Below, piece by piece: positions 251 to 53,595 of a stretch of 64,000 nt of DNA. The notes below the pieces were generated by a model. That model searched no databases. It was not told the origin of the DNA and saw only the letters and a list, made by a program, of their open reading frames with translations. This stretch comes from Paludibacteraceae bacterium (lineage in GTDB: Bacteria > Bacteroidota > Bacteroidia > Bacteroidales > Paludibacteraceae). The stretch is from positions 190,964 through 254,963 of the forward strand of contig JAFTOD010000002.1 in assembly GCA_017451525.1 (NCBI GenBank), written 5' to 3'. How positions within the stretch are numbered: the stretch's first letter is position 1; every line of letters begins with the position of its first letter. The translations under genes and the position numbers were made by a program.

Positions 251-1486
251 ATGGACTTTTTTGAAGAAATATGGGCTACGATCACCAAGAACCGTTCACG
301 CAGTATCTTGACGGGCTTTGGTGTCTTCTGGGGTATGATGATGCTATTGGTATTGGTGGGCTTAGGGCAATCGCTCACCCAAGGTATCATGGCTAATGTC
401 GAGGGCTTTGCTATCAATTCGTGCTTTGTTATTCCCGACCGCACCAGCAAACCCTACAAGGGCTTGCAAAAGGGACGAACTTGGTCTATCCACAACCAAG
501 ACATGCCTACTATTCGCCATGCAGCCCCCCACGCTGATGTCATAGCACCCATGTGCTTTGGCGGAGAAAGCACCGTGCGCTTTGGTACATGGCACGATGA
601 GTATAATATGGTGGGTATCACTCCCGACTATCCCAAGATACTATATGTCCCATTGCTCTACGGACGCGAAATCAACGAGATTGATGTACAGGAGAAGCGA
701 AAAGTATGTGTCATAGGCAACGAGGTGTACAACAAACTATTCCCCGAAGGAGGCAACCCCGTAGGCAAACTCTTGCATATTGGCAACATGCAGTTCCGCA
801 TTGTGGGCGTGAAGCAAAAGACCAAAGCGCAAGTCTATCTAGGTGGTCATCCCGACCAACAAGTCTTCTGGCCAATCTCCACGCTGCAGCAAGCTCGCCA
901 ACTGGGCGAAAATATCCATCTCATCATGGCTACTGCCCAATCGAACACACCCGTCAGTATCGTGGAGGAAGAACTGAAGACTGTGCTAAAAGACCTCTAT
1001 ACCATCGCTCCCGATGACAACCGCGCCATGTACACCATGAACATGGAGGAAACGCTCAAAGCATTCCAATATCTGGTTGTCGGATTAAGCGCACTGATAT
1101 GGCTCATCGGTTTAGGCACACTGATTTCGGGTGCGGTAGGTGTCAGCAATATCATGCTCGTAACCGTGCGCGAACGCACCAAGGAGATAGGTATCCGTCG
1201 TGCGATAGGTGCCAGCCCGTGGGTGATTACCAAGCAGATATTAGCGGAAAGTACCTTGCTCACGCTGTTAGCAGGACTGTTAGGCATAGTGGCAGGCGTT
1301 GGCGTACTGCAATTGGCACAACAACTCTTGCAGGGCAATAAGATGTTTAGCCAAGAGATGCAAATCAGTTTTGGCATAGCCATTGGTGGATTAGCCATCT
1401 TATTGGTTATCGGATTATTAGCAGGACTATTGCCTGCTCGCCGAGCATTAGCCATAAAGCCCATTGAGGCACTTAATGAAGAATAA
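251..1486 (+). CDS. ABC transporter permease, FtsX/MacB-type
   Basis: About 411 aa with an N-terminal TM, a large periplasmic domain and a C-terminal FtsX 4-TM bundle (RERTKEIGIRRAIGAS). I prefer ATG 251 (MDFFEEIW) to the GTG at 239, which lies inside the repeat. Confidence 0.85.
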   Translation: MDFFEEIWATITKNRSRSILTGFGVFWGMMMLLVLVGLGQSLTQGIMANVEGFAINSCFVIPDRTSKPYKGLQKGRTWSIHNQDMPTIRHAAPHADVIAPMCFGGESTVRFGTWHDEYNMVGITPDYPKILYVPLLYGREINEIDVQEKRKVCVIGNEVYNKLFPEGGNPVGKLLHIGNMQFRIVGVKQKTKAQVYLGGHPDQQVFWPISTLQQARQLGENIHLIMATAQSNTPVSIVEEELKTVLKDLYTIAPDDNRAMYTMNMEETLKAFQYLVVGLSALIWLIGLGTLISGAVGVSNIMLVTVRERTKEIGIRRAIGASPWVITKQILAESTLLTLLAGLLGIVAGVGVLQLAQQLLQGNKMFSQEMQISFGIAIGGLAILLVIGLLAGLLPARRALAIKPIEALNEE

Positions 1487-2602: not shown

Positions 2603-3904
2603 ATGAAACAACTACTTATCATTTCTCTCTGCCTCCTATCATTGGGCGTGCATGCCGAAGTATTTACATTGCAACAGTGCATTGACTCGGCTTTGCTCAA
2701 TAGTCTGACTATGCAGAAGCAGGGCAATCAATATGCCTCACAACGCCTGCAATATACGCAGTCCAAGGCCGATATATCGCCATCTATCAGTGGTTCAGCA
2801 GGGCAGAGCTGGATATTCGGACGCTCGATTGGAGCGGACAATATCTATCACGCACAAAACTCATCGCAAACCACCTTCAATCTGGCTGCTAATATTGTGC
2901 TGTTCGATGGACTGCAAATGAAGTTCAATATCGACCAAGCACGTGCCAACATGCAGGCATCCGAAGCCAACATGCAGGCATTGCAACTGCAAATCAAGAT
3001 GAATATATCCACCATGTATTTGCAAGTGTTGCTCTGCAAAGAACTGCTCGCAGTAGCTGAAAACCAACTGGCTGATACACGCATGAAGTTGCAACGCGAT
3101 TCAGCATTGGTGGCTATCAACCGTTTGCCTGCAGGCGAACTCTACACGCTGCAAGCGCAAGCCGCTCGCGAGGAGTTGGAAGTCACGCAACGCCAAAACA
3201 ACCTGCAACTATCGCTCTTAGACTTGGCACAAGCCATCGAACTGCAAGATATTACCCATTTCGATATTGCTACTCCAAGCCACGAAGAACTGGCAGGTGG
3301 CTTGCTACCCAACAACGAGGAAGTGTATCAAATCGCCTTGCAATCTCGCCCAGAGATCAAGGCATTGGAATACACGATTCAAGCCAACGAGAGCGCACTC
3401 AAAGGCATCAAGTCCGCCTATTCGCCTACGCTCTCTGCGGGGGCTAATGTCGGAACGGGCTACTACGATATGCAAGGGGCGGATAATAATACTTTCGGCA
3501 CCCAAATGAGGGACAACTTCAGCGCATCGGTGGGCTTAAACCTGCATGTGCCTATCTACGACAAGATGCAAACCTCCACTCGCGTGAAGCAACAGAAACT
3601 GGCATTGGAGAATGCGCGTCTGGATTTAGAGCAACAGAAGAAAGACTTGCGCAAGGAGATAGACCAAGCATACTACAACGCTCGCAATGCCAGCATCGAA
3701 CAATTGGCATCCGAGAAAGCCGAGCAATCCACCGCAGAAGCCCTACGCTACACCACGCAGAAATACGAGGCAGGACGTTGCTCGCTATATGAGTACCAAG
3801 AGGCACGCAACAACCACTTGCAGGCACAATCCACTCGCCTCCAGGCGCAATACAATTACCTCTTCCGTCTACGTATCCTGCAATACTACCAAGGGGTATT
3901 GTAG
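2603..3904 (+). CDS. TolC-family outer membrane efflux protein
   Basis: 433 aa with a signal peptide and two long repeats rich in Q/A/L coiled coil. Stop and start are 4 nt apart from the adaptor gene, which indicates an operon. Confidence 0.85.
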   Translation: MKQLLIISLCLLSLGVHAEVFTLQQCIDSALLNSLTMQKQGNQYASQRLQYTQSKADISPSISGSAGQSWIFGRSIGADNIYHAQNSSQTTFNLAANIVLFDGLQMKFNIDQARANMQASEANMQALQLQIKMNISTMYLQVLLCKELLAVAENQLADTRMKLQRDSALVAINRLPAGELYTLQAQAAREELEVTQRQNNLQLSLLDLAQAIELQDITHFDIATPSHEELAGGLLPNNEEVYQIALQSRPEIKALEYTIQANESALKGIKSAYSPTLSAGANVGTGYYDMQGADNNTFGTQMRDNFSASVGLNLHVPIYDKMQTSTRVKQQKLALENARLDLEQQKKDLRKEIDQAYYNARNASIEQLASEKAEQSTAEALRYTTQKYEAGRCSLYEYQEARNNHLQAQSTRLQAQYNYLFRLRILQYYQGVL

Positions 3905-3997: not shown

Positions 3998-6901
3998 ATG
4001 AAAAAAATGTTTTTATTGGGCATGGCAATGGTGATGTCGCTGACCATGCTGATGGCGCAAACGCGCGAAGGATTGACCGAGTATAAATTGGATAACGGCT
4101 TGACCGTCATGCTCTGGGAAGACCACGATCAACCTGACGTGACTGGTTATGTGGCCGTGCGTGCAGGTGCCATGGACGAACCTGCAGAATATACTGGTTT
4201 GGCACACTACTTGGAGCACATGCTCTTCAAGGGTACACAGAAAATCGGTGCACTCGACTGGGAGAAAGAGAAGCCCTACTACGAGGAGATTATTCGTCTC
4301 TACGACGAGTATGCAGTGACTACCGATGAGGCAAAGCGTGTAGAATTGACCACCAAAATCAACGAAGCGTCGATTGAGGCAGCTAAATATGCTACCGTAG
4401 AGGACTTCTTCGTATTGCTCGATGGTATCGGTGCTACAGGCGTGAATGCCTTTACCAGCTACGACATGACTTGCTACCACAACTCATTCCCAGCTGCGAA
4501 CATGTACAAGTGGTTGACCATTTTCTCCGACCGACTGATCGACCCTGTGTTCCGTACTTTCCAAGCTGAATTGGAGAATGTGTTTGAGGAGTACAATATG
4601 TACGAGGATAATCCAACTACCCATGTGCGCAAAACACTGATGAGTACGATCTTTGCGGGTCACCCATACGAGCGCGATGTGATTGGTTTGCCAGAACACT
4701 TGAAGAATCCACGCCTCAGCAAACTCATCGAGTTCTACAACACATGGTATGTGCCTAACAATATGGCGTTGATTATCGTAGGTGATTTCGACACAGAGAC
4801 TACCAAACCTATGATTGAGGAGACTTTTGGTCGTTTGGAATATAAGGAGTTGCCAGCGCGTCCTAGCTACCCAAAGACCTCATTTGCAGGCAATCCAAAG
4901 CATAAGTTCAAAATGGGTTACTACCCAATGGTCATTTGGGCATACGATGGTGTGAACATGACCGACGAAGACTTGTTGCCATTGCAATTCGTGGCTTCAC
5001 TGCTCAACAACAGCACCAATACTGGTTTGCTTGACAAACTCAATATCGACGGTATTGTTTCCTCTGCTGGCGTAAGCGTGAATGCGCTTCGCGACCAAGG
5101 TCGTATCATCATTGAGGCTATTCCATATTATGATGCTAACCAACAAGCCTATGAGTCAAATGCCGCTACAGAGAAGATTGTGATGGCTGAAATCAATCGT
5201 CTGAAGAATGGCGATATACCTGATTGGTTGATTCAAACCGTGAAAGCCGAGTATGCACAAAACTACAAGTTGGCGTTCGAGAGCTCAGATACCAAGATGA
5301 ATGCCCTCGTTTCTAGTTTCGTGTACAATACTCCTATTGATGATATCTTCACCGAGAATGAGAAGATTCAAGCACTCACCAAGGAGGACATCCAACGCAT
5401 TGCTAAGAAGTATTTCGATGCAGAATACATGACGTTGGCATTCGACGAAGGTACACCTAAGAAGAATAAATTGGCAAAGCCACAAATCAAGCCACTTGAC
5501 CTCATCAATAGCCAAGAGACTGAGTATGCCAAGGCATTCAAGCAACTGCCACAAGGCGAACTCAAACAAACGTTCATGGATATGAACGACGTGAAAGTAT
5601 TGGATATTGACAACAACGTGAAGCTGCACTATGCAACCAACCCAAAGAACAATATCTTCTCTCTTGACCTCATCTTCGGTATCGGTACGGCTAAGAAACC
5701 TATGCTGGAGTATGTGACTTCGCTCATGAACCGTGGTGGTATCATGCCAAACATTGAGCCACAAGACTTCCGTCGCCAACTCTCTGAGTTGGGTGGTCGT
5801 TGCGCTTACGGCGTGAACGATAGCTACTTCTATGTATCTATCATTGGCGAGGAAGAGCACTTGGCGGAGATTTGCCAATTAGTACAACGCCAAATGTTGA
5901 TGCCTAAGTTCGATACCAAGCAGTTTGATGCTGTCAAGGGTAGCGAGCTCTCCAGCCGCTTCATGATGTCGAAGATGGACGGTCTGCAAGCAGACGCGTT
6001 GCGCCAATACGTATTGTACGGCGACAAATCAGAATACATCGATGTAGTACCATTCATGGATGTATATTACATGGATGAGTTGAAGCTGAAGGTAGAGTTC
6101 CTCGATGCTATCAAATATGCGCTTGATATTCACTATTGCGGACAAAAACCAGTAGAGGAAGTGAAGGATATCTTGACCAAGAACCTTCCATTGCAAGAAG
6201 GCGTACAACCATCTACTTCACCAGAGATTTTGGACAAGAAGACTTACGACAAGACTCAAGTATATTTCTTGGCTAACTCTAACGTACAACAATCCACCAT
6301 CTACTTCTACTTCAATGGTAAGCCATACGACAAAGAGCAATCCGTTCTCTTCCAAGCATTCAACCAATACTTCTCTGGTGGCTTCACGGGTATCGTATTG
6401 GATGAGATTCGCGAGAAACGCTCTATGGCATACACCGCAGCAGGTAATGCCGTGCGTGGACCATTGCCAGGCAAAGAGTCGTACTTCATGGGCTATATCG
6501 GTACACAATCCGACAAGGCAGTAGATGCTATCAATGTATTTATGTCATTGCTGGATTCTATGCCACAATATCCTGAGCGTATCGAGAGTGTGAAAGCCGC
6601 TTTGCGCCAAAACGCACAGACAGCTAAACCATCGTTCCGTGCAAAGACAGAGGTATATGATTCATGGCGTGAGATGGGGTATGAGATTGACCCTGCTAAG
6701 TACAACCAAGAGGCAATCAACAACCTCACCTTCGAGCAAATCATGCAATTCTACGAGGAGAATATCAAGGGACAACCCGTATCTATCATTGTGATGGGTG
6801 ACCCTAAGCTCATCGACCAAAAAGCATTGCAAGCCAAGTATGGCAAGATCGTGAAGGTATCCAAAGCCCGCCTCTTTGCTCCACTCGATTTGGACTTCTA
6901 A
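3998..6901 (+). CDS. M16-family zinc peptidase (insulinase/pitrilysin-like, double-length)
   Basis: 967 aa with a signal peptide and the inverted zinc motif HxxEH (GLAHYLEHMLFKG). The second half is an M16-like inactive domain. Confidence 0.9.
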   Translation: MKKMFLLGMAMVMSLTMLMAQTREGLTEYKLDNGLTVMLWEDHDQPDVTGYVAVRAGAMDEPAEYTGLAHYLEHMLFKGTQKIGALDWEKEKPYYEEIIRLYDEYAVTTDEAKRVELTTKINEASIEAAKYATVEDFFVLLDGIGATGVNAFTSYDMTCYHNSFPAANMYKWLTIFSDRLIDPVFRTFQAELENVFEEYNMYEDNPTTHVRKTLMSTIFAGHPYERDVIGLPEHLKNPRLSKLIEFYNTWYVPNNMALIIVGDFDTETTKPMIEETFGRLEYKELPARPSYPKTSFAGNPKHKFKMGYYPMVIWAYDGVNMTDEDLLPLQFVASLLNNSTNTGLLDKLNIDGIVSSAGVSVNALRDQGRIIIEAIPYYDANQQAYESNAATEKIVMAEINRLKNGDIPDWLIQTVKAEYAQNYKLAFESSDTKMNALVSSFVYNTPIDDIFTENEKIQALTKEDIQRIAKKYFDAEYMTLAFDEGTPKKNKLAKPQIKPLDLINSQETEYAKAFKQLPQGELKQTFMDMNDVKVLDIDNNVKLHYATNPKNNIFSLDLIFGIGTAKKPMLEYVTSLMNRGGIMPNIEPQDFRRQLSELGGRCAYGVNDSYFYVSIIGEEEHLAEICQLVQRQMLMPKFDTKQFDAVKGSELSSRFMMSKMDGLQADALRQYVLYGDKSEYIDVVPFMDVYYMDELKLKVEFLDAIKYALDIHYCGQKPVEEVKDILTKNLPLQEGVQPSTSPEILDKKTYDKTQVYFLANSNVQQSTIYFYFNGKPYDKEQSVLFQAFNQYFSGGFTGIVLDEIREKRSMAYTAAGNAVRGPLPGKESYFMGYIGTQSDKAVDAINVFMSLLDSMPQYPERIESVKAALRQNAQTAKPSFRAKTEVYDSWREMGYEIDPAKYNQEAINNLTFEQIMQFYEENIKGQPVSIIVMGDPKLIDQKALQAKYGKIVKVSKARLFAPLDLDF

Positions 6902-7126: not shown

Positions 7127-7272
7127 GGGCTTTCCTAAAAAAGTTGTCCACTTTCCTAAAACGGTTGACTACGTCCGCAAGATTCTCTGCCTTTACGCCA
7201 TACACTCTACACCCTACACCAGAAAAATCGCCCTGAAATATGATTTTTCTTGCTCAATCCAAAATAATTCTG

Positions 7273-7280
7273 TACCTTTG
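7273..7280 (+). promoter_or_regulatory. -7 box (TACCTTTG) for the AT-rich island operon
   Basis: Matches TAnnTTTG, with TTCTTGC about 20 nt upstream and the ATG 26 nt downstream. Confidence 0.6.
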
Positions 7281-7305
7281 CAAAGTGTATCAAAAATTTA
7301 GCATT

Positions 7306-7986
7306 ATGGGGATTGTATTTGTTTTAATACTATGGATGGTTGTTTTAGTGATTCCATCTTGTATTCTTGGAGGATTAACTCTTCTTATTGCTTATATTTT
7401 TGTTCATAAGAAACAATTTAAAGGGAAGAAATCCCTTCTTGCATTAGCAACCTTATCCCCGATGATATTTATTGGTTTAGAGTTAATAATAGCGATCATA
7501 AGTTTTCCAATAGTTTCCGAGCGTCACAAAGTTGATACAGGTATTGGAGATTATTGGTGCGCTCCAATTAATGATTACTATTATCTTGCTGCTATTGATT
7601 TGCCAGAAAGAGCATATATAGAGTCTTATAATATACGTAATCAATCTATAAATGATCGTATCTTACGATTATGGAGTATTACTGATACTACTGTAGTTTT
7701 AACCAAAGATAGTTCATTATATTTATTTCAGCCGCACGCAAGTGCAATTGATACCCTTTTGTACAAAGCAGAGCAGCAGCACTTAAATGAGGTGTTAGAG
7801 GAAATGGATTTGTCAGATAGCGACGCAATAACCCCTGAAGATTATTTTGATAAAACACAACAAGAAGCACATAAAATCGAACGTGTTGTACGTCATGGAA
7901 TAGTTGTGTTGGTACTCATGCTTTTGTGGGGAGGACTATTTTACTATATTAAAAAAACTAAAACGAAATTACAGACTATCACTTGA
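7306..7986 (+). CDS. Hypothetical membrane protein (AT-rich island gene 1)
   Basis: The ORF has two N-terminal TM helices and one C-terminal TM helix, and I recognise no motif. Start is set at ATG 7306 because the TACCTTTG -7 box (7273-7280) lies inside the longer ORF-track model. Confidence 0.55.
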   Translation: MGIVFVLILWMVVLVIPSCILGGLTLLIAYIFVHKKQFKGKKSLLALATLSPMIFIGLELIIAIISFPIVSERHKVDTGIGDYWCAPINDYYYLAAIDLPERAYIESYNIRNQSINDRILRLWSITDTTVVLTKDSSLYLFQPHASAIDTLLYKAEQQHLNEVLEEMDLSDSDAITPEDYFDKTQQEAHKIERVVRHGIVVLVLMLLWGGLFYYIKKTKTKLQTIT

Positions 7987-21845: not shown

Positions 21846-21849
21846 CAAC

Positions 21850-22159
21850 CGCAAACCCAAAGTTTGCAGACATATTATTAAAAGCGTTTACTACGGGGTC
21901 CTCATAATTTTAAGCAATGGGGTGTCCTCAGCGCTTGTTTTGGCTTCCTGAAACTTGGAAACTTTCAATCTATCCAAAACAAGAAGGCAGTAAACGCCCT
22001 TATGGGATATGTATATCCCGCCCGCAGAGCGTCCTTCGTGGACTGCTCTGTTTGGTGGCATTTCATATTCGGCGTGGGCGTTGCTTGCTTGTTCTTATAG
22101 ATAAGGTATTCCAAGACCTCAGGAAGAAGAATAAGCAATGGTAAGGTTCCACGCTTTTT
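21850..22159 (+). ncRNA. Candidate structured RNA, copy 1 (leader or sRNA, family unidentified)
   Basis: It starts just after a TACCTTTG -7 box, and the ORFs inside are short and not conserved with copy 2. Hairpins lie at 21851-21867, 22004-22019 and 22025-22050. A stem pairs 22081-22096 with 22124-22138, and the element ends in a T-run at 22155-22159. It is collinear with copy 2, with compensatory helix changes. Confidence 0.5.
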
Positions 22160-22209: not shown

Positions 22210-23925
22210 ATGAAACGAATTTTTACTTTCTTTTTTGCGCTATTGAGCGCATGCACATTCTCTACGTATGCAGCCATTATCGATGGCACCTGCGGTGATA
22301 ACCTCACTTGGACACTCAACACCAAGGATAGCACCTTAACGATCTCAGGTACGGGAAATATGACTTACTCCTCACCATGGTTCGATTACAGATCCTACAT
22401 CAAGTATGTCATCCTTCCTGATGGTCTTACGAGTATTGGAGACAATGCGTTCAGTGGTTGCTCTTCTCTCTCCTCTATCACCATCCCTAACAGCGTAACG
22501 AGTATTGGAGATTATGCGTTCATTCATTGCTCTAGTTTGACTTCTGTGACTCTCGGCAATAGCGTAACAAGTATTGGAAAGGAGGCGTTCAAAGATTGCT
22601 CAGGTTTGACTTCCATCACTATTCCTAACAGCGTAACGAGTATTGGAGAGAATGCGTTCTATTATTGCTCTAGTTTGACTTCTGTGACTCTCGGCAACAG
22701 CATAACGACTATTGAATATGGTACGTTCTCTAAATGCTCTAGTTTGACTTCTGTGACTCTCGGCAATAGCGTAACAAGTATTGGAAAGGAGGCGTTCAGA
22801 GATTGCTCAAGTTTGACTTCCATCACTATCCCTAACAGCGTAACGACTATTGGATATAGGGCGTTCCAATATTGCTCAAGTTTGACTTCTGTCACTCTCG
22901 GCAACAGCGTAACAAGTATTGAAGCTGATGCGTTCTATAGGTGCGAAAATTTGACTTCCATTACCATCCCAAACAACGTAACGAGTATTGGAGATTATGC
23001 GTTCAGTGCTTGCTGGAGTTTGACTTCTGTGACTCTCGGCAAAAATCTTACGAGTATTGGATGGGAGGCGTTCCAACATTGCAGCAGCATCCGAGAAGTA
23101 ACTGCTTTCATGCCTACACCACCTGCGGCTGTAAACTGTGGTCTAAATCCCGCTGCTGTAACTCTTTACGTTCCTGCAGAATATCTTGAAGCATATCAAA
23201 ATGCAGTATGGTGGGAAGATTTCAAAAAAATCCGCGCTATTGGTTCGGATTGGGATGTTGAGTTCGTAGATTGGGATGGTACCATCCTTGCTACAATGAA
23301 AGTGCCTAATGGCGAAGCCGCTACCGCACCTGCTGATCCTACTCGCGAGGGATACACTTTCATCGGTTGGGATAAGGACTTCAGCCATGTGACCGACCAC
23401 ATGACTGTCACAGCACAATACCAAATCAACCGCTACCGCGTGCGTTTCTTCGACTACGACAATACGCTCCTCAAGACAGACTCCGTAGAATATCAAGCTG
23501 CTGCTACAGCCCCTGCTAATCCATACCGCGAGGGATATACCTTTATCGGTTGGGATCAAGAGTTTGATTCCATCACAGCGGACTTGGATGTATATGCGCA
23601 ATACGAGTTTGGTGAAGACTGTGACATGACCATCGTCTTTACCAATAGCGAGGATAATGACAGCGAAATTTATAGTCAATCACTCACAATCAAGGTGCCT
23701 GCTGCACCAGATATTGAGGGCTTTACTTTCCTTGGTTGGCAACCAGTGGCTACATTAATCACAGATACTATCACCATCCAAGCAATCTACGAAGCAGACA
23801 TCCCATCATCCGCTCCAGAGGTATATGTCAATCCTGCTAACCCAGCACAAAAACTCCTCCGCAATGGTCAAGTTTACATTCTGCAAGACGGCAAGACCTA
23901 CACCATCACAGGACAGAAGCTATAA
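22210..23925 (+). CDS. BspA-like leucine-rich-repeat surface protein with Listeria-Bacteroides-type repeats and a T9SS-like C-terminal tail
   Basis: Signal peptide MKRIFTFFFALLSACTFSTYA. It has at least 12 LRR units of about 23 aa (IPNSVTSIGxxAFxxCSSLTSV) and three GYTFIGWD-type repeats. The C-terminus is LLRNGQVYILQDGKTYTITGQKL. I prefer ATG 22210 to the longer 22138 model. Confidence 0.85.
   Translation: MKRIFTFFFALLSACTFSTYAAIIDGTCGDNLTWTLNTKDSTLTISGTGNMTYSSPWFDYRSYIKYVILPDGLTSIGDNAFSGCSSLSSITIPNSVTSIGDYAFIHCSSLTSVTLGNSVTSIGKEAFKDCSGLTSITIPNSVTSIGENAFYYCSSLTSVTLGNSITTIEYGTFSKCSSLTSVTLGNSVTSIGKEAFRDCSSLTSITIPNSVTTIGYRAFQYCSSLTSVTLGNSVTSIEADAFYRCENLTSITIPNNVTSIGDYAFSACWSLTSVTLGKNLTSIGWEAFQHCSSIREVTAFMPTPPAAVNCGLNPAAVTLYVPAEYLEAYQNAVWWEDFKKIRAIGSDWDVEFVDWDGTILATMKVPNGEAATAPADPTREGYTFIGWDKDFSHVTDHMTVTAQYQINRYRVRFFDYDNTLLKTDSVEYQAAATAPANPYREGYTFIGWDQEFDSITADLDVYAQYEFGEDCDMTIVFTNSEDNDSEIYSQSLTIKVPAAPDIEGFTFLGWQPVATLITDTITIQAIYEADIPSSAPEVYVNPANPAQKLLRNGQVYILQDGKTYTITGQKL
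22534..22857 (+). repeat. Near-identical intragenic DNA repeats (207-bp period, equal to 3 LRR units) within the LRR gene
   Basis: 22534-22640 and 22741-22847 differ at only a few positions. Confidence 0.85.
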
Positions 23926-31843: not shown

Positions 31844-33505
31844 ATGGAATATATACGCGAATTGTTTTTAATACCTTCGGTGACGCAATCTATAGTGTTG
31901 CTCACGTTGGTTGTATGCCTTGGTCTGTGGGCAGGGGAACATCTGCGTATCAAAAACTTCTCGTTGGGTATCACGTGGATACTGTTTGTGGGTATTATCT
32001 TCTCGTCTTTTGGCATTACGATTGACCCACAAGTAAGCCATTTCGCCAAGAACTTCGGACTGATACTCTTTGTCTATTCCATCGGTTTGCAAGTTGGACC
32101 TTCCTTCTCACCCTTTGGCAAGAGTGGTTTGCGATTGAATATGTTGGCAGTGGCAATCGTGTTGCTGGGTTGTGGTATTACCATCGCTCTGCACTATATC
32201 ACAGGTATTGAGATGACGACTATGGCGGGTATCATGTCGGGTGCGGTGATGAATACCCCTTCGCTGGGTGCAGTGCAACAGACGGCAGCAGATATGATGG
32301 GTGAAGTGTCGCCCGATATTGCGATGGGTTATGCTTTGGCTTATCCGCTCAGTATCGTGGGTTTGATATTGTCGTTTGAGTTGATACGTTTTTGCTGCCG
32401 TGTGAACTTGCGTGAAGAGGATGCTAAATTGCGCGAGGAACATGTGTCGGATGATGATCCTATTTGCGTGGATATTCGTTTATCGGTGGCTTCTGCCATT
32501 ACGTTGAAAGAGTTGCATGCCCTGTGTGGTGTGGATAATCTGTTGGTGAGCCGTGTGACTCGTGCAGATGGTCGCGATGAACTGGTGGATGGTAGTACTG
32601 TATTGTATCCCAATGATGTGATTCGTATCGTGAGTGATAAGCGTCATGAGAAAGACTTGCAGGTATTAGGTGAGGTGACGCATTACGGTTTTCGTGGTCG
32701 AGAACGCTCCGACCACTTGATTTCGCGCCGCGTGGTGGTTACTCGCACGGAGTGTAATGGCAAACGCTTGAGCACTTTTGACGTGCGCCACCGCTATCAT
32801 GCTACTATCACACGTATCAATCGTGCGGGTGTAGAGTTGTTGGCAACTCCAGATTTCGTATTGCAACTGGGCGACCGTATCATGGTGGTGGGCGATAAGG
32901 AAGATGTGCGCCATGTGGCGGAGATGTTTGGTAATGAGCTCAAGCGTTTGGACTTGCCTAACTTGATGCCCATCTTCTTTGGCATCTTCTTGGGTGTATT
33001 GTTGGGCTCTCTGCCAATTGCGATACCAGGTATGAATCAATCGTTTAAGTTGGGCTTGGCAGGTGGCTCGCTGATTGTGGCGTTGCTGATTGGTCGTTTT
33101 GGTCCGTATTATAGTATGGTGACATTTGCTACGACAAGTGCCAATATGATGTTGCGTCAGGTGGGTTTAACAATGTTTTTGGCAGCAGTGGGCTTGAGTG
33201 TAGGTGATGGCTTCGTGAATACCATTTTGAATGGCGGCTATATGTGGGTAGTGTATGGTGTGCTGATTACCATGATACCGCTCGTAGTAGTAGGTTTGAT
33301 AGCGTATAAAGGAATGCAGATCAACTTCTTTAAGGTGGTAGGTTTGCTGATAGGTGCGATGACTGGTGCTCCAGCCTTAGGTTATGCGGAGCGTCTTTCT
33401 TCGCACAACGACCAAGCGTCGGTGGTATACGCTACGGTATATCCGTTGACGATGTTTCTTCGTGTGATGGGAGGGCAATTGCTAGTATTGTTATTCTGCC
33501 ACTAA
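31844..33505 (+). CDS. YidE/YbjL-type putative transporter (AAE family) with two central TrkA-C/RCK_C domains
   Basis: 553 aa with 5-6 TM, then two soluble repeats (VTRADGRDELVDGSTVLYPNDVIRIV and ITRINRAGVELLATPDFVLQLGDRIMVVG), then 5-6 TM. Confidence 0.85.
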   Translation: MEYIRELFLIPSVTQSIVLLTLVVCLGLWAGEHLRIKNFSLGITWILFVGIIFSSFGITIDPQVSHFAKNFGLILFVYSIGLQVGPSFSPFGKSGLRLNMLAVAIVLLGCGITIALHYITGIEMTTMAGIMSGAVMNTPSLGAVQQTAADMMGEVSPDIAMGYALAYPLSIVGLILSFELIRFCCRVNLREEDAKLREEHVSDDDPICVDIRLSVASAITLKELHALCGVDNLLVSRVTRADGRDELVDGSTVLYPNDVIRIVSDKRHEKDLQVLGEVTHYGFRGRERSDHLISRRVVVTRTECNGKRLSTFDVRHRYHATITRINRAGVELLATPDFVLQLGDRIMVVGDKEDVRHVAEMFGNELKRLDLPNLMPIFFGIFLGVLLGSLPIAIPGMNQSFKLGLAGGSLIVALLIGRFGPYYSMVTFATTSANMMLRQVGLTMFLAAVGLSVGDGFVNTILNGGYMWVVYGVLITMIPLVVVGLIAYKGMQINFFKVVGLLIGAMTGAPALGYAERLSSHNDQASVVYATVYPLTMFLRVMGGQLLVLLFCH

Positions 33506-33512: not shown

Positions 33513-33590
33513 TTTATAGCTTATAGTTAATCCGCAACGATATTGTTGCCCGACATATTTAATATAGCGTTATAAGCCAAAACCCTCACT

Positions 33591-33626
33591 GCCATTTATG
33601 CAAAATCCGCATAAATGGCATTTTTA
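33591..33626 (+). terminator. Intrinsic terminator after the transporter gene
   Basis: GCCATTTATGC-AAAATCC-GCATAAATGGC followed by ATTTTTA. Confidence 0.7.
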
Positions 33627-33672
33627 TTTGCACAATTCTTGCTCAATTCTTGCTCAATTCAAAATAATTCAC

Positions 33673-33680
33673 TACCTTTG
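33673..33680 (+). promoter_or_regulatory. -7 box (TACCTTTG) driving RNA copy 2
   Basis: Matches TAnnTTTG. The upstream TTCTTGCTCAATTCAAAATAATTC cassette is shared with 7248-7272. Confidence 0.6.
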
Positions 33681-33685
33681 CACCC

Positions 33686-33979
33686 GTAATCAGCCCACGC
33701 CTTGGGATTATGTCTTTCGGGTGGGATGGTTGCAGACATAATAAAGGCGTTAAAAAGCGCTTTGTGCTTGGCTACTTGGAATCTAGCAAATTTCTTCTAT
33801 ACCCAACACATAGCAGCATTTTGATGTCCTCGGGATATGTAATCTATATCCATACACACTATTGATAGGTGTGTATGTGTGGTACATATCGGCGTGGGCT
33901 CAATGTTGTTTGTTCGGGTATAAAGGCAATGCTAGAGCCTCAAGTAGCGGAACAGCAACAATGCAGTCCCGCTTTTTTT
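33686..33979 (+). ncRNA. Candidate structured RNA, copy 2 (leader or sRNA, family unidentified)
   Basis: It starts just after a TACCTTTG -7 box and contains no ORF of 60 aa or more. A perfect 10-bp long-range helix pairs 33692-33701 with 33891-33900. Four further helices are present, and it ends AGCGG..CCGCT plus T7. Confidence 0.55.
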
Positions 33980-34086
33980 GTGTCGATATACAATATCTAA
34001 TTAACAAACAATAAATCAAATAATTAAACAACGGAGTAAGCCGAAAATCCGATGAAGAGTAGGCATAATAATTAAATTTATTTATT

Positions 34087-34989
34087 ATGAAAAAGTTTTT
34101 TTTCTTTTTTGCAGCACTATTAAGCGGTGTGCAGACTGTGTTTGCTCAAGCAGACTCTACTGCGGTTGAGATGGTAGAACAAACAACTAAAAGTGGGCAA
34201 GTAGGTGAGATTTTACTAGGTATTCTCATTCTGCTCGTTATGTTTGCTATTATTGGTCACATGGTTTATGAATTGTTTATTGTTAAAAAACCAAAGGCAC
34301 TTACTGTTGAAGAGTGTAAAGAGGCTCGTATGAATGCGGGATTGTCTCCTATGACCGAAGAAGAAGCACAAGAACTATTAAACAAAATGGTAGACGATAC
34401 TGAATCTTGGACTTCTTTTGTAAATGCGAACAATGAGGATGATAAAATAATCACTAAATATAGTCAAGCAAAGAAAACACGCCAAGTTTTGGAGGAAGTA
34501 GCAGCAAGCATGCCAGATAATTCTGATGTGGTAGAATGCTACAACTCATTATTGGAAATATACACAGAGTGCACAAAGCGTAAATACAATGCGAGTACAA
34601 CATATATAATCATCTCTGCAGTCTTAATGGTTGGTATGGCAATTTTGTCTGGGGCATATGAAGCGATTGCTTTTTGTGCAGTATCAGTTGGTATTTATAT
34701 AATGGCAAGTATGACACCTAATTATATCCTAATAAAAAAAGAACTAAAAGGCAGAAGAGGTCCTAAGTTCATGTCTGGATTTATTGCGGGTATTCTGGGT
34801 GGTGTTGCAACAGCAGAAACCGTAACTACAGTAACCAAATGGAGTGATGGAACAACCACGAAAGATGTAGATAATTCTAATTTCTGGATCTCTTTAATTT
34901 TGTCAATCGTTCTTTTTGTTGTATTGGCAATATTCATGTTCGTACTTGCGTTTATCAATTATTTACGCAACTATGTATTTCATTTTTAA
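34087..34989 (+). CDS. Hypothetical multi-pass membrane protein (AT-rich)
   Basis: 300 aa with a signal peptide, one TM, a charged helical soluble region and about 4 C-terminal TM helices. I recognise no motif. Confidence 0.6.
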   Translation: MKKFFFFFAALLSGVQTVFAQADSTAVEMVEQTTKSGQVGEILLGILILLVMFAIIGHMVYELFIVKKPKALTVEECKEARMNAGLSPMTEEEAQELLNKMVDDTESWTSFVNANNEDDKIITKYSQAKKTRQVLEEVAASMPDNSDVVECYNSLLEIYTECTKRKYNASTTYIIISAVLMVGMAILSGAYEAIAFCAVSVGIYIMASMTPNYILIKKELKGRRGPKFMSGFIAGILGGVATAETVTTVTKWSDGTTTKDVDNSNFWISLILSIVLFVVLAIFMFVLAFINYLRNYVFHF

Positions 34990-35013
34990 TCTCGAAAATA
35001 AATAATAGAAAAA

Positions 35014-35044
35014 AGAGTGTGTCGAATATAGATACACTCTTTTT
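35014..35044 (+). terminator. Intrinsic terminator after the AT-rich membrane protein gene
   Basis: AGAGTGTGTCGAATATAGATACACTCT followed by TTTT. Confidence 0.75.
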
Positions 35045-35124
35045 ATATATAGAATGCTAATACTACGTAGATAAGAAAACATAACGCCACCGTTATGACA
35101 TAGATAAGCGGCGGATAAGTTCTA

Positions 35125-35166
35125 GTGGTCACAAAGCGGTTACGAAGCCCACAGGTAACTTAAGAG
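35125..35166 (+). repeat. Diverged 42-bp direct repeat, copy 1
   Basis: GTGGTCACAAAGCGGTTACGAAGCCCACAGGTAACTTAAGAG matches 35230-35271 at 33 of 42 positions, and most differences are transitions. Confidence 0.65.
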
Positions 35167-35229
35167 AAATCTAAGTTGAAGCAAATTTAGCCCACAGAAA
35201 GCCCACCGAAGTCCTAGAGATCTCCTATG

Positions 35230-35271
35230 GTGGTCGCGAAGTGGTCACGTAGCCCGCAGTCAACTTGAGAG
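35230..35271 (+). repeat. Diverged 42-bp direct repeat, copy 2
   Basis: GTGGTCGCGAAGTGGTCACGTAGCCCGCAGTCAACTTGAGAG. Confidence 0.65.
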
Positions 35272-35342
35272 TGTTTATTCGCGAAATGGGATAAAAATAC
35301 GATTTTCGCCATTTATCTCTTGTAGGTATCACAAAATTATTG

Positions 35343-35350
35343 TACCTTTG
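35343..35350 (+). promoter_or_regulatory. -7 box (TACCTTTG) for the SDR/PPTase genes
   Basis: Matches TAnnTTTG, 58 nt upstream of the ATG. Confidence 0.55.
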
Positions 35351-35408
35351 CAGCGAAAAAGTACGAGTTAATGCTCGAATGTTCACAGTCTAAAGTCAAA
35401 GAAAATAT

Positions 35409-36176
35409 ATGTACGCACTAATCACGGGAGCTAGTTCGGGGTGTGGGTATGAATATGCCCGAATAATGGCACAAAAAGGATACAAACTACTCATAGTCAG
35501 CAATGAAGAAGCAATACACGACAAAGCACTGCTTCTTCGCCAAGATTTTGGTGTGGAGGTGGTTTCGTTGGTTCGCAATTTGGGAGTACAAGATGCTGCC
35601 AAAGAATTGTATGACTATTGCAAGGCAGCAAACATACAAGTAGAAGTACTCATCAACAACGCAGGGGTATATCACGATTGCGATTTCTTGGCAGATTCTG
35701 AGGGATTTAACCAATTGATATTCAATCTTCATATGCATACACCCGCTATGTTGATGTACTATTTCGCTCAAGACATGGTCCAACGTGGCAAAGGATATAT
35801 CCTCAATATGTGTTCAATCACTGCGGATATTGCCGTACAACGTTTGAGCACCTATGGTGCAACCAAAGCATTTTTGAGCAACTTCACCCGTTCGGTGCAT
35901 ATCGAATTGAAGGAGAAGGGAGTATATGTGACCAACGTCACCCCAGGAGCTATCAATACGGGATTATATAATATCCGTCCGTGGTTGACGAAGATGGGCT
36001 TGTTGTTGGGGTATATCGTACAACCTGATTATTTGGCTCGTCGTGGAGTGAATGCCATGTTCCGTGGGCGTGCTAAAGTGACGGTGCCTGCGTTGTGGAA
36101 TCATATCTTGCTTTTCTTGGTGGCACTGATACCTACATGTATGCTGCGCCTGATTCGTAAGTTAAGACTCTTCTAA
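35409..36176 (+). CDS. SDR-family oxidoreductase
   Basis: TGASSGCG cofactor motif, NNAG and a YxxxK region (YGATKAF). Confidence 0.88.
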   Translation: MYALITGASSGCGYEYARIMAQKGYKLLIVSNEEAIHDKALLLRQDFGVEVVSLVRNLGVQDAAKELYDYCKAANIQVEVLINNAGVYHDCDFLADSEGFNQLIFNLHMHTPAMLMYYFAQDMVQRGKGYILNMCSITADIAVQRLSTYGATKAFLSNFTRSVHIELKEKGVYVTNVTPGAINTGLYNIRPWLTKMGLLLGYIVQPDYLARRGVNAMFRGRAKVTVPALWNHILLFLVALIPTCMLRLIRKLRLF

Positions 36177-53483: not shown

Positions 53484-53513
53484 TTGACAATTGATAGTTT
53501 ACAATTTGCGGTG

Positions 53514-53521
53514 CAAAGGTA
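53514..53521 (-). promoter_or_regulatory. -7 box (TACCTTTG on the minus strand) for mnmA
   Basis: Reverse complement of CAAAGGTA, 31 nt upstream of the start. Confidence 0.55.
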
Positions 53522-53595
53522 GGTGTTTTTTTGCAAATGTGCAAGAGTTTGCATAAAAAACACTTATGATGGTTGTGTATTTCATTATTTTTTTG

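Follow-up and report, generated by a model that had tools for sequence, protein, structure and literature searches.

Leader RNAs that work by a choice between terminator and antiterminator (riboswitch platforms, T-box leaders and trp attenuators) have a promoter, a leader of 200-300 nucleotides (nt), a stem with a U-tract, a co-oriented gene, and conserved, mutually exclusive helices that use the terminator strand; T-box leaders also occur in several copies per genome before different genes. The c-di-GMP riboswitches (GEMM-I/II) are found in many copies before genes whose products, such as adhesins and proteases, are secreted or lie at the cell surface. The ops/JUMPstart-RfaH system, the LoaP leaders, and the EAR and put RNAs lie near the promoters of acquired surface or extracellular operons, and the LoaP leaders hold an intrinsic terminator. 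Other regulatory RNAs, such as 6S and CsrB, act by binding a protein. In the Bacteroidales, which dominate the gut and the rumen, the control of variable surface proteins is known mainly via invertible promoters and NusG-like factors and, to our knowledge, large regulatory RNAs have seldom been reported. The 6S RNA of the Bacteroidales has a housekeeping role and has been detected together with tmRNA and RNase P RNA (10.1101/2024.04.05.588293). The small RNA (sRNA) FopS, deposited in Rfam, is built of a terminator hairpin preceded by a single-stranded 5' seed and is encoded by 14 genes, including intergenic, antisense and 3'-untranslated-region (3'-UTR)-derived copies (PMC11697453). Here we describe an element in a 64,000-nt stretch of DNA (the window) from a Paludibacteraceae bacterium (GenBank assembly GCA_017451525.1, contig JAFTOD010000002.1, positions 190,964 to 254,963), with coordinates counted from the first letter of the window. 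The Paludibacteraceae leader element, copy 2, occupies 33681-33979 on the plus strand (about 299 nt), from the end of a -7 box to the end of a U-tract, and on balance it probably belongs to a new multi-copy family of ~300-nt cis-acting Bacteroidales leader RNAs of the attenuator type.

In its proposed function, the element is most like the terminator/antiterminator leaders, whose general layout it shares: a promoter lies directly 5' of it, a stem and U-tract close it, the gene that follows is co-oriented and lacks a recognisable promoter, conserved exclusive helices use the putative terminator strand, and several copies per genome stand before different genes, as with T-box leaders. It departs from riboswitch, T-box and trp leaders in having no Rfam match, no conserved leader peptide and no common pathway downstream; moreover its sensor would not be a compact multi-helix junction but a ~100-bp rod that carries an apical domain. 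The regulon logic resembles that of the c-di-GMP riboswitches (a dispersed set of surface proteins, one signal), although our element is much larger and matches none of their Rfam models. Like the ops/JUMPstart-RfaH and LoaP leaders, it is a conserved element right after the promoter of genes for surface components; the elements of processive antiterminators, however, are short (12-39 nt as DNA or ~70-120 nt as RNA) and do not form long rods with covariation, no link between the element and a NusG paralogue emerged, and here the genes are often single and short. Because no model matches, we do not count the element as a member of these leader classes. Bacteroidales-1 (RF01693, 6S) is likewise specific to the Bacteroidales, with a TAnnTTTG promoter, a terminator and a rod fold, but cmscan finds no match of it to our element at E <= 10, and the element is multi-copy, longer and tied to a downstream gene. 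FopS and GibS have in common with it their multiple copies, sigma-A-type promoters and terminators, and their occurrence in gut Bacteroidales; the element differs in being ~300 nt long, almost fully paired, and placed before a co-oriented gene (93 vs 3 and 94 vs 5, see below).

The sequence-only reading, made from the letters of this stretch without database searches, had recognised no RNA class in the element, and searches bear it out. Rfam 15 at gathering level gave no match on the element in the window, relaxing the threshold to E <= 10 returned only chance-level snoRNA and miRNA matches on it (15-26 bits), and 18 diverse family loci matched no Rfam family. ARAGORN reported no tRNA or tmRNA. 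The classes rejected for want of a covariance-model match are tmRNA, RNase P, SRP, 6S/Bacteroidales-1, riboswitches, T-box and HEARO, and a literature search found no description of this RNA family. A small protein gene was rejected as well: where the absence of open reading frames (ORFs) of 60 amino acids (aa) or more had been claimed, no plus-strand ORF within copy 2 in fact exceeds 51 aa, the ORF from 33710 is not conserved (absent or 4-79 codons in relatives; median longest ORF 31 aa), and the relatives have no conserved ORF or leader peptide in common.

The same reading had labelled the element a second copy, rightly so, since a paralogue lies at ~21846-22159 (nhmmer E = 2.8e-12); copies 1 and 2 have GGGATATGTA ... 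TCGGCGTGGGC in common. Scanning one genome per species for this GGGATATGTA ... TCGGCGTGGGC pattern gave a first set of at least 115 loci, 110 of which are confirmed by a profile built from their alignment; a second set, of at least 120 metagenome loci, was retrieved with pattern anchors outside the apical motif. The search for homologues in Bacteroidales that had been suggested beforehand thus recovers more than 230 relatives, nearly all in Bacteroidales metagenome-assembled genomes (MAGs) or metagenome contigs, mostly of Paludibacteraceae and from ruminant guts. Further carriers among the matches listed are Prevotellaceae, Muribaculaceae, Bacteroidaceae, Paraprevotella and others, all of them MAGs or metagenome contigs, and both distribution and copy numbers are lower bounds. 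Several genomes hold at least 4-5 dispersed copies. Copy 2 scores 208 bits against the family profile (nhmmer); paralogues are ~55-70% identical and differ by compensated changes. The copy 1 element, from promoter to T-run, is sequence-identical to locus L021 in the Paludibacteraceae MAG JBGUSG010000011.

Transcription signals mark both ends. A TAnnTTTG box stands at the expected distance in 180 of the 200 family members whose upstream sequence is long enough (90%), against 18 of 170 control windows, and a run of at least four T is present at the 3' end in 211 of 225 (94%), which agrees with the promoter-driven unit proposed earlier. The -7 box at 33673-33680, the T7 tract at 33973-33979 and the terminator of the preceding transporter gene, all three read beforehand from the letters, are confirmed by sequence and by a terminator scan, and from its position the promoter would place the transcription start site of copy 2 at about 33686-33690. 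A conserved stem precedes the T-run, whether as a small hairpin (81-82% paired) or as a long one (85%).

The family is also tied to the gene that follows it. Among the genome loci listed, the nearest substantial downstream ORF is co-oriented in 93 cases and opposed in 3 (p = 4e-24); for the independently retrieved metagenome set the corresponding numbers, again among the loci listed, are 94 and 5 (p = 2e-22). Upstream genes at the genome loci are of mixed orientation (51 vs 31). The start codon follows the T-run at a median distance of 71 nt, within 60 nt or less in 35 of 76 cases, and a TAnnTTTG box occurs in only 3 of the 76 spacers; with spacers so short and so rarely holding a promoter box, the downstream genes would depend on the promoter of the element. 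Their products fall into 67 Pfam families, none of them dominant, and many have no family; represented are BspA-LRR, MBOAT, zinc-ribbon, trypsin-like and collagen-like proteins, and glycosyltransferases. By a crude heuristic, N-termini resembling signal peptides are found in 55% of the downstream proteins and in 23% of the other ORFs at these loci (odds ratio 4.0, p = 2e-9).

These numbers bear directly on the main rival explanation, a stand-alone multi-copy sRNA gene whose ~295-nt product would act in trans, by binding a protein or by base-pairing, while the downstream genes would receive leaky read-through. The sequence-only reading had left a terminator-coupled leader and an independent sRNA side by side; gene context now favours the leader, and the sRNA, although the strongest competitor, appears unlikely to us. 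Its own promoter and conserved T-run, a rod-like fold of great stability, a stem 5' of the U-tract in all alternative folds that would make termination robust, and several dispersed copies per genome, like the multi-copy FopS of Bacteroides (PMC11697453), are all what such a gene would have; a co-orientation of ~95-97% with the following gene, in dozens of unrelated families, is, however, unexpected for free-standing sRNAs, and a median spacer of 71 nt with 73 of 76 spacers lacking a promoter box also speaks against the sRNA. Furthermore, the most variable parts of the RNA are helices that covary copy by copy rather than a common single-stranded seed. No long conserved unpaired stretch was identified in the family: the conserved runs ACAUA, GCGU, CGCUU, CGGCGU and AGCAA all lie within proposed helices.

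The comparisons described here directly support, at the level of sequence, a conserved, non-coding, structured RNA read from the plus strand, with a predicted promoter and T-run at its ends and an operon-like tie to the next gene. They also directly support its predicted layout: a 5' domain, a long, imperfect, covarying rod, an apical domain conserved in sequence, and a stem with a U-tract (for the parts, see Table 1). The minimum free energy (MFE) of the 294 nt of copy 2 is -116.4 kcal/mol, compared with -78.5 +/- 5.3 kcal/mol for 200 dinucleotide shuffles, none of which reaches it (z = -7.1), as the dense self-complementarity noted earlier would lead one to expect. The individual helices proposed at that stage stand too: 33692-701/33891-900, 33707-15/33734-42, 33833-38/33846-51, 33852-59/33869-76 and 33946-50/33969-73 are perfect reverse complements, and the bulged helix holds as 33904-33915 with 33950-33960 and one bulge. 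Strong covariation among more than 80-150 homologues leaves the structured-RNA reading, which a lack of covarying pairs would have contradicted, in place.

Covariation in the rod was evaluated on alignment A3 (81 distinct sequences). RNAalifold, run on the whole gappy full-length alignment, recovered few pairs (-24.8 kcal/mol), and for this reason each sequence was folded separately and the helices so obtained were put to explicit tests. In a covariation scan made without restrictions, clade structure drowned the signal. Pairing in the rod reaches 82%, compared with 36-48% after sliding of the 3' partners, and double-sided changes amount to 622 cells, against 200 +/- 13 in shuffles. Helix P2 (33771-78/33941-48) is 94.6% paired with eight of its eight pairs changed on both sides, and P3 (33782-87/33931-36) 99.4% paired with five of six so changed; up to 4-5 pair types occur per position in P2 and P3, and 4-6 at four positions of P4. 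The presence of 3-5 pair types at many positions indicates repeated independent compensation. In the apical domain P8 is 94.8% paired and P9 80% (seven of eight pairs changed on both sides), while S1 of the 5' domain is 84.5% paired in the family.

Within the rod pairs G-U outnumbers A-C about fivefold (518 vs 97), and the opposite strand of copy 2 folds less well (-95.5 kcal/mol, z = -6.6), the plus strand being 21 kcal/mol more stable; G-U excess and strand asymmetry together indicate selection on the plus-strand RNA and not on DNA. This speaks against a mobile repeat of the Correia type or a miniature inverted-repeat transposable element, in other words a DNA palindrome with a chance outward promoter, which we regard as very improbable. 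Such a repeat would account for the multiple dispersed copies, for two strands that both fold well (z = -7.1 and -6.6), for the proximity to accessory AT-rich genes and for the one copy that precedes an IS110-family transposase gene. It would not account for the near-fixed orientation relative to the neighbour gene, for ends that coincide with a promoter (of the organism's ordinary type) and a putative terminator, or for paralogues only ~55-70% identical whose differences are compensated; nor were there matches in phage or plasmid collections, and 2.9 million viral contigs gave three. What defines such repeats in strand and orientation is absent here, terminal inverted repeats and target-site duplications not having been searched for systematically.

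A phage or plasmid origin was rejected on similar grounds: the phage and plasmid collections gave no match to blastn in 'distant' mode, and of the three pattern matches in viral contigs the profile confirms only L236 (not L237 or L238). The L236 member (383-633, plus strand, of IMGVR_UViG_3300021319_000137) lies 14 nt 5' of a gene whose 577-aa product has EF-Tu GTPase domains 1-3 and which is followed by two proteins without a Pfam family.

The helices of the rod are not the only ones that the family conserves. In 150 full-length sequences, with slid-partner controls, the tested helices (A:C, C:D, X2:Y and others) are each 80-99% paired, against 11-66% in the controls. Segment A pairs with segment C in 86.7% (37-52% when slid); over 39 distinct combinations its positions 2-9 show at least 92% pairing, and C-G to U-A exchanges occur at three positions. 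Alternatively, segment A can pair locally with segment B, the A:B helix being 72% paired, so that it has either B or the apical segment C as partner. Segment C pairs with segment D (33965-73, directly 5' of the U-tract) in 87.8%, X2 with Y in 93.6% (90-94% across tests, with a G-C to A-U exchange), and X2 pairs better with Y than with the 5' arm; the PL hairpin is 99.7% paired and shows a C-G to U-A exchange. The 3' end would have two options, the small hairpin GCGG.AC/GU.CCGC, or D and Y paired to C and X2 in the long hairpin 33891-33973, which is 85.4% paired over 26 pairs. X2:Y, PL and the long hairpin share nucleotides with, and so would exclude, rod helices P2-P6. A competing helix for the shared terminator strand thus appears conserved in these alignments, with compensatory changes in each option. 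In copy 2 the rod is the MFE state (-116.2 kcal/mol), the long hairpin (-106.6) and the A:C state (-100.3) lying within ~10-16 kcal/mol of it. Folding of successive prefixes predicts that the 5' arm folds on itself first and that A:C precedes synthesis of the 3' arm.

The segments also change together. In the metagenome set segment C is not invariant, and its variants GGCGUAGGU, CAGCGUAGG and GGCGUGGAC come with matching changes in the partner strands. A lineage in which GUGGG has become GUAGG has CCUAC for CCCAC in segment A, GGGUAGG for GGGUGGG in segment B, and CU(A/G)CGC for CC(A)CGC in segment D; D matches the state of C in all distinct combinations, 9 of 9 with GUAGG and 19 of 19 with GUGGG. 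Other variants show the A-C compensation as well (CAGCG with CGCUG; GGAC with GUCC). The second of two diverged members in one Paludibacteraceae MAG (L059: 1377-1622 on the minus and 4491-4730 on the plus strand, divergent and 2.9 kb apart) belongs to the GUAGG lineage and was the first to reveal the coordinated A/B/C/D changes.

A further rival of the attenuator-type leader is a constitutive 5'-UTR module without a switch, which would have one pseudoknotted fold and would set messenger stability, processing (for example by RNase III cutting the rod) or a fixed level of expression. We consider this module improbable, more so than the sRNA. The gene context places the element in the transcription units of the downstream genes, which suits such a module; double-strand-specific RNases use long, nearly continuous duplexes as substrate, and the predicted rod is a duplex of this kind; and the downstream genes offer no ligand theme. 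On the other hand, a stabiliser has no need of a conserved U-tract right after a stem, and four segments have changed together in a way that keeps more than one pairing possible. As to geometry, the linkers of 0 and 1 nt would bar P2-P4 and the long 3' hairpin from coexisting as a simple (H-type) pseudoknot, and from their coordinates the two more likely alternate than coexist.

For the attenuator-type leader, we propose the following course of events. The 3' stem and U-tract would terminate transcription, and the downstream gene, having no recognisable promoter, would therefore be expressed only by RNA polymerase that passes the terminator. During transcription, segment C (GGCGUGGG) and X2 could pair backward, with segment A and the 5' arm of the rod, or forward, with D and Y before the U-tract, the latter giving the long terminator hairpin 33891-33973. 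Segment B may act as a mimic or decoy of C, keeping A away from it. The partner that captures C and X2 would set the outcome: a released RNA of ~295 nt or read-through into the gene. Some effector would bias the choice; the most plausible candidates, an RNA-binding protein and a small molecule, would do so by recognising the conserved apical or the 5' domain.

Several observations weigh against this proposal. The transcription start site, the 3' end and the read-through are all deduced from sequence. In each of the alternative folds some stem still precedes the U-tract, be it the small hairpin, the long hairpin or a closing helix AAAGGCG/CGCUUUU, and termination could therefore be constitutive. 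The terminator scan of the window made no call at the 3' end of copy 2, a failure we attribute to the 18-nt loop of the small hairpin. A single pseudoknotted fold could accommodate the alternative helices, and the joint change of A, B, C and D may be a single evolutionary event. Copy 1 and many type-1 members are without segment A, so that A:C competition is not universal. The search patterns of both sets were drawn from the family itself, which makes the conservation of the anchored motifs partly circular, and many family sequences are orthologues or close relatives. Promoters of alternative sigma factors may be present in the spacers. Finally, Pfam annotation of the downstream genes revealed no shared metabolic theme and no pointer to an effector.

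Table 1. Features of copy 2, copy 1 and their surroundings (positions in the window)
Feature	Position	Strand	Details
Upstream Asp-Al_Ex/TrkA-C transporter gene	31844-33505	+	Pfam
Intrinsic terminator of the transporter gene	33590-33630 (scan: 33590-33620)	+	12-bp stem + T-run
Promoter of copy 2, Bacteroidetes type	33650-33680	+	-33 TTG 33650-52; -7 box TACCTTTG 33673-80
Segment A AGCCCACGCC	33692-33701	+	perfect 10-bp complement of 33891-33900 GGCGTGGGCT
5' domain	33707-33742	+	helix S1 AUUAUGUCU/AGACAUAAU (33707-15/33734-42), encloses segment B
Segment B GGGUGGG	33719-25	+	mimics segment C
P1 hairpin AAGGCG/CGCUUU	33744-33763	+	91% paired in family
Rod, 5' arm	33771-33830	+	5' strands: P2 33771-78, P3 33782-87, P4 33798-804, P5/P6 33805-20, P7 33826-29
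Apical domain	33834-33890	+	P8 GAUAUGUA/UACAUAUC; P9 hairpin, variable sequence (33852-59/33869-76)
Segment C GGCGUGGGCU, hub	33891-33900	+	complementary to A, 5'-arm GUCC (P7), D
Rod, 3' arm	33902-33948	+	X2 33904-15, PL hairpin, 3' strands of P4, P3, P2
PL hairpin AGGC/GCCU	33924-27/33937-40	+	loop = P3 3' strand
Termination region	33947-33979	+	Y GAACAGCAACA 33950-60; segment D GUCCCGC 33966-72; U7 33973-79
DUF805b RNA motif	34031-34065	+	Rfam RF02914, 42 bits vs gathering 35.6, full model 1-35
Gene behind copy 2	34087-34989	+	300-aa AT-rich protein, signal peptide + membrane segment; no Pfam family, no own TAnnTTTG box
Copy 1	21846-22159	+	-7 box TACCTTTG 21838-45; T-run 22155-59; nhmmer 169 bits, z = -7.6
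Gene behind copy 1	22210-23925	+	BspA-type leucine-rich-repeat surface protein; Pfam LRR_5 1.4e-78, Flg_new

The terminator at 33590-33620 marks the end of the transcription unit that precedes copy 2 (Table 1). Just 5' of the -7 box, at 33634-33655 on the plus strand, an 11-bp sequence is duplicated in tandem (AATTCTTGCTC twice), which yields two candidate -33 TTG boxes (33639-41 and 33650-52). The extended promoter (TTGC.CA...AAA...TACCTTTGCA) recurs nearly verbatim in the window at 7247-7282 on the plus strand, where it precedes a small membrane protein (ATG at 7306), and at 53510-53549 on the minus strand, before a gene resembling mnmA (MnmA-like). From these sequences it looks like the general strong promoter consensus of the organism, and a promoter special to the element was rejected, ordinary unrelated genes having the same one.

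In copy 1, which is followed by the start codon of its leucine-rich-repeat gene 50 nt after the T-run, a hairpin is inserted in the P1 loop. This optional hairpin of ~40 nt (GGGGUCC ... GGGGUGUCC) is seen in copy 1 (21880-21935) and in the long variants L011 and L027; as members of both major subtypes have the P1-loop insertion, it is either recurrent or ancestral. The 3' strand of P1 is itself similar to the terminator end CGCUUUU.

The AT-rich membrane-protein gene that had been proposed downstream of copy 2 fits what we find there: a signal peptide and a membrane segment, and a GC content of 0.38 over 34001-36000, against ~0.45-0.47 in the flanks, consistent with an accessory or acquired gene. 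Between the element and this gene the sequence-only reading had missed the DUF805b motif, a separate, known cis-regulatory motif situated 52 nt after the U-tract and 21 nt before the ATG at 34087, so that two RNA elements are stacked in one 5' UTR. The orthologous locus L094 has the motif too (2786-2820, minus strand). The 300-aa protein has no Pfam DUF805 match, and the main text of the paper on 224 motifs contains no discussion of DUF805.

Since one module stands before dozens of unrelated exported and accessory genes, a dispersed, surface-related gene set would be placed under one signal. Going further, we tentatively suggest, at somewhat less than even confidence, a new class of multi-state leader, riboswitch-like or protein-responsive, in which four co-evolving segments would compete for the terminator strand and which would tie dispersed accessory surface and secreted genes of gut and rumen Bacteroidales to that single signal. 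Covariation opens the leader to direct tests: segments A, B, C and D are suited to mutate-and-compensate tests, and the conserved apical domain is usable as bait for the effector. The leader module could also become a portable part for the control of expression in Bacteroidales engineering. If the proposal is true, both a regulon and an RNA class would be new, defined by a 300-nt leader that stands before dozens of unrelated genes for surface and accessory proteins.

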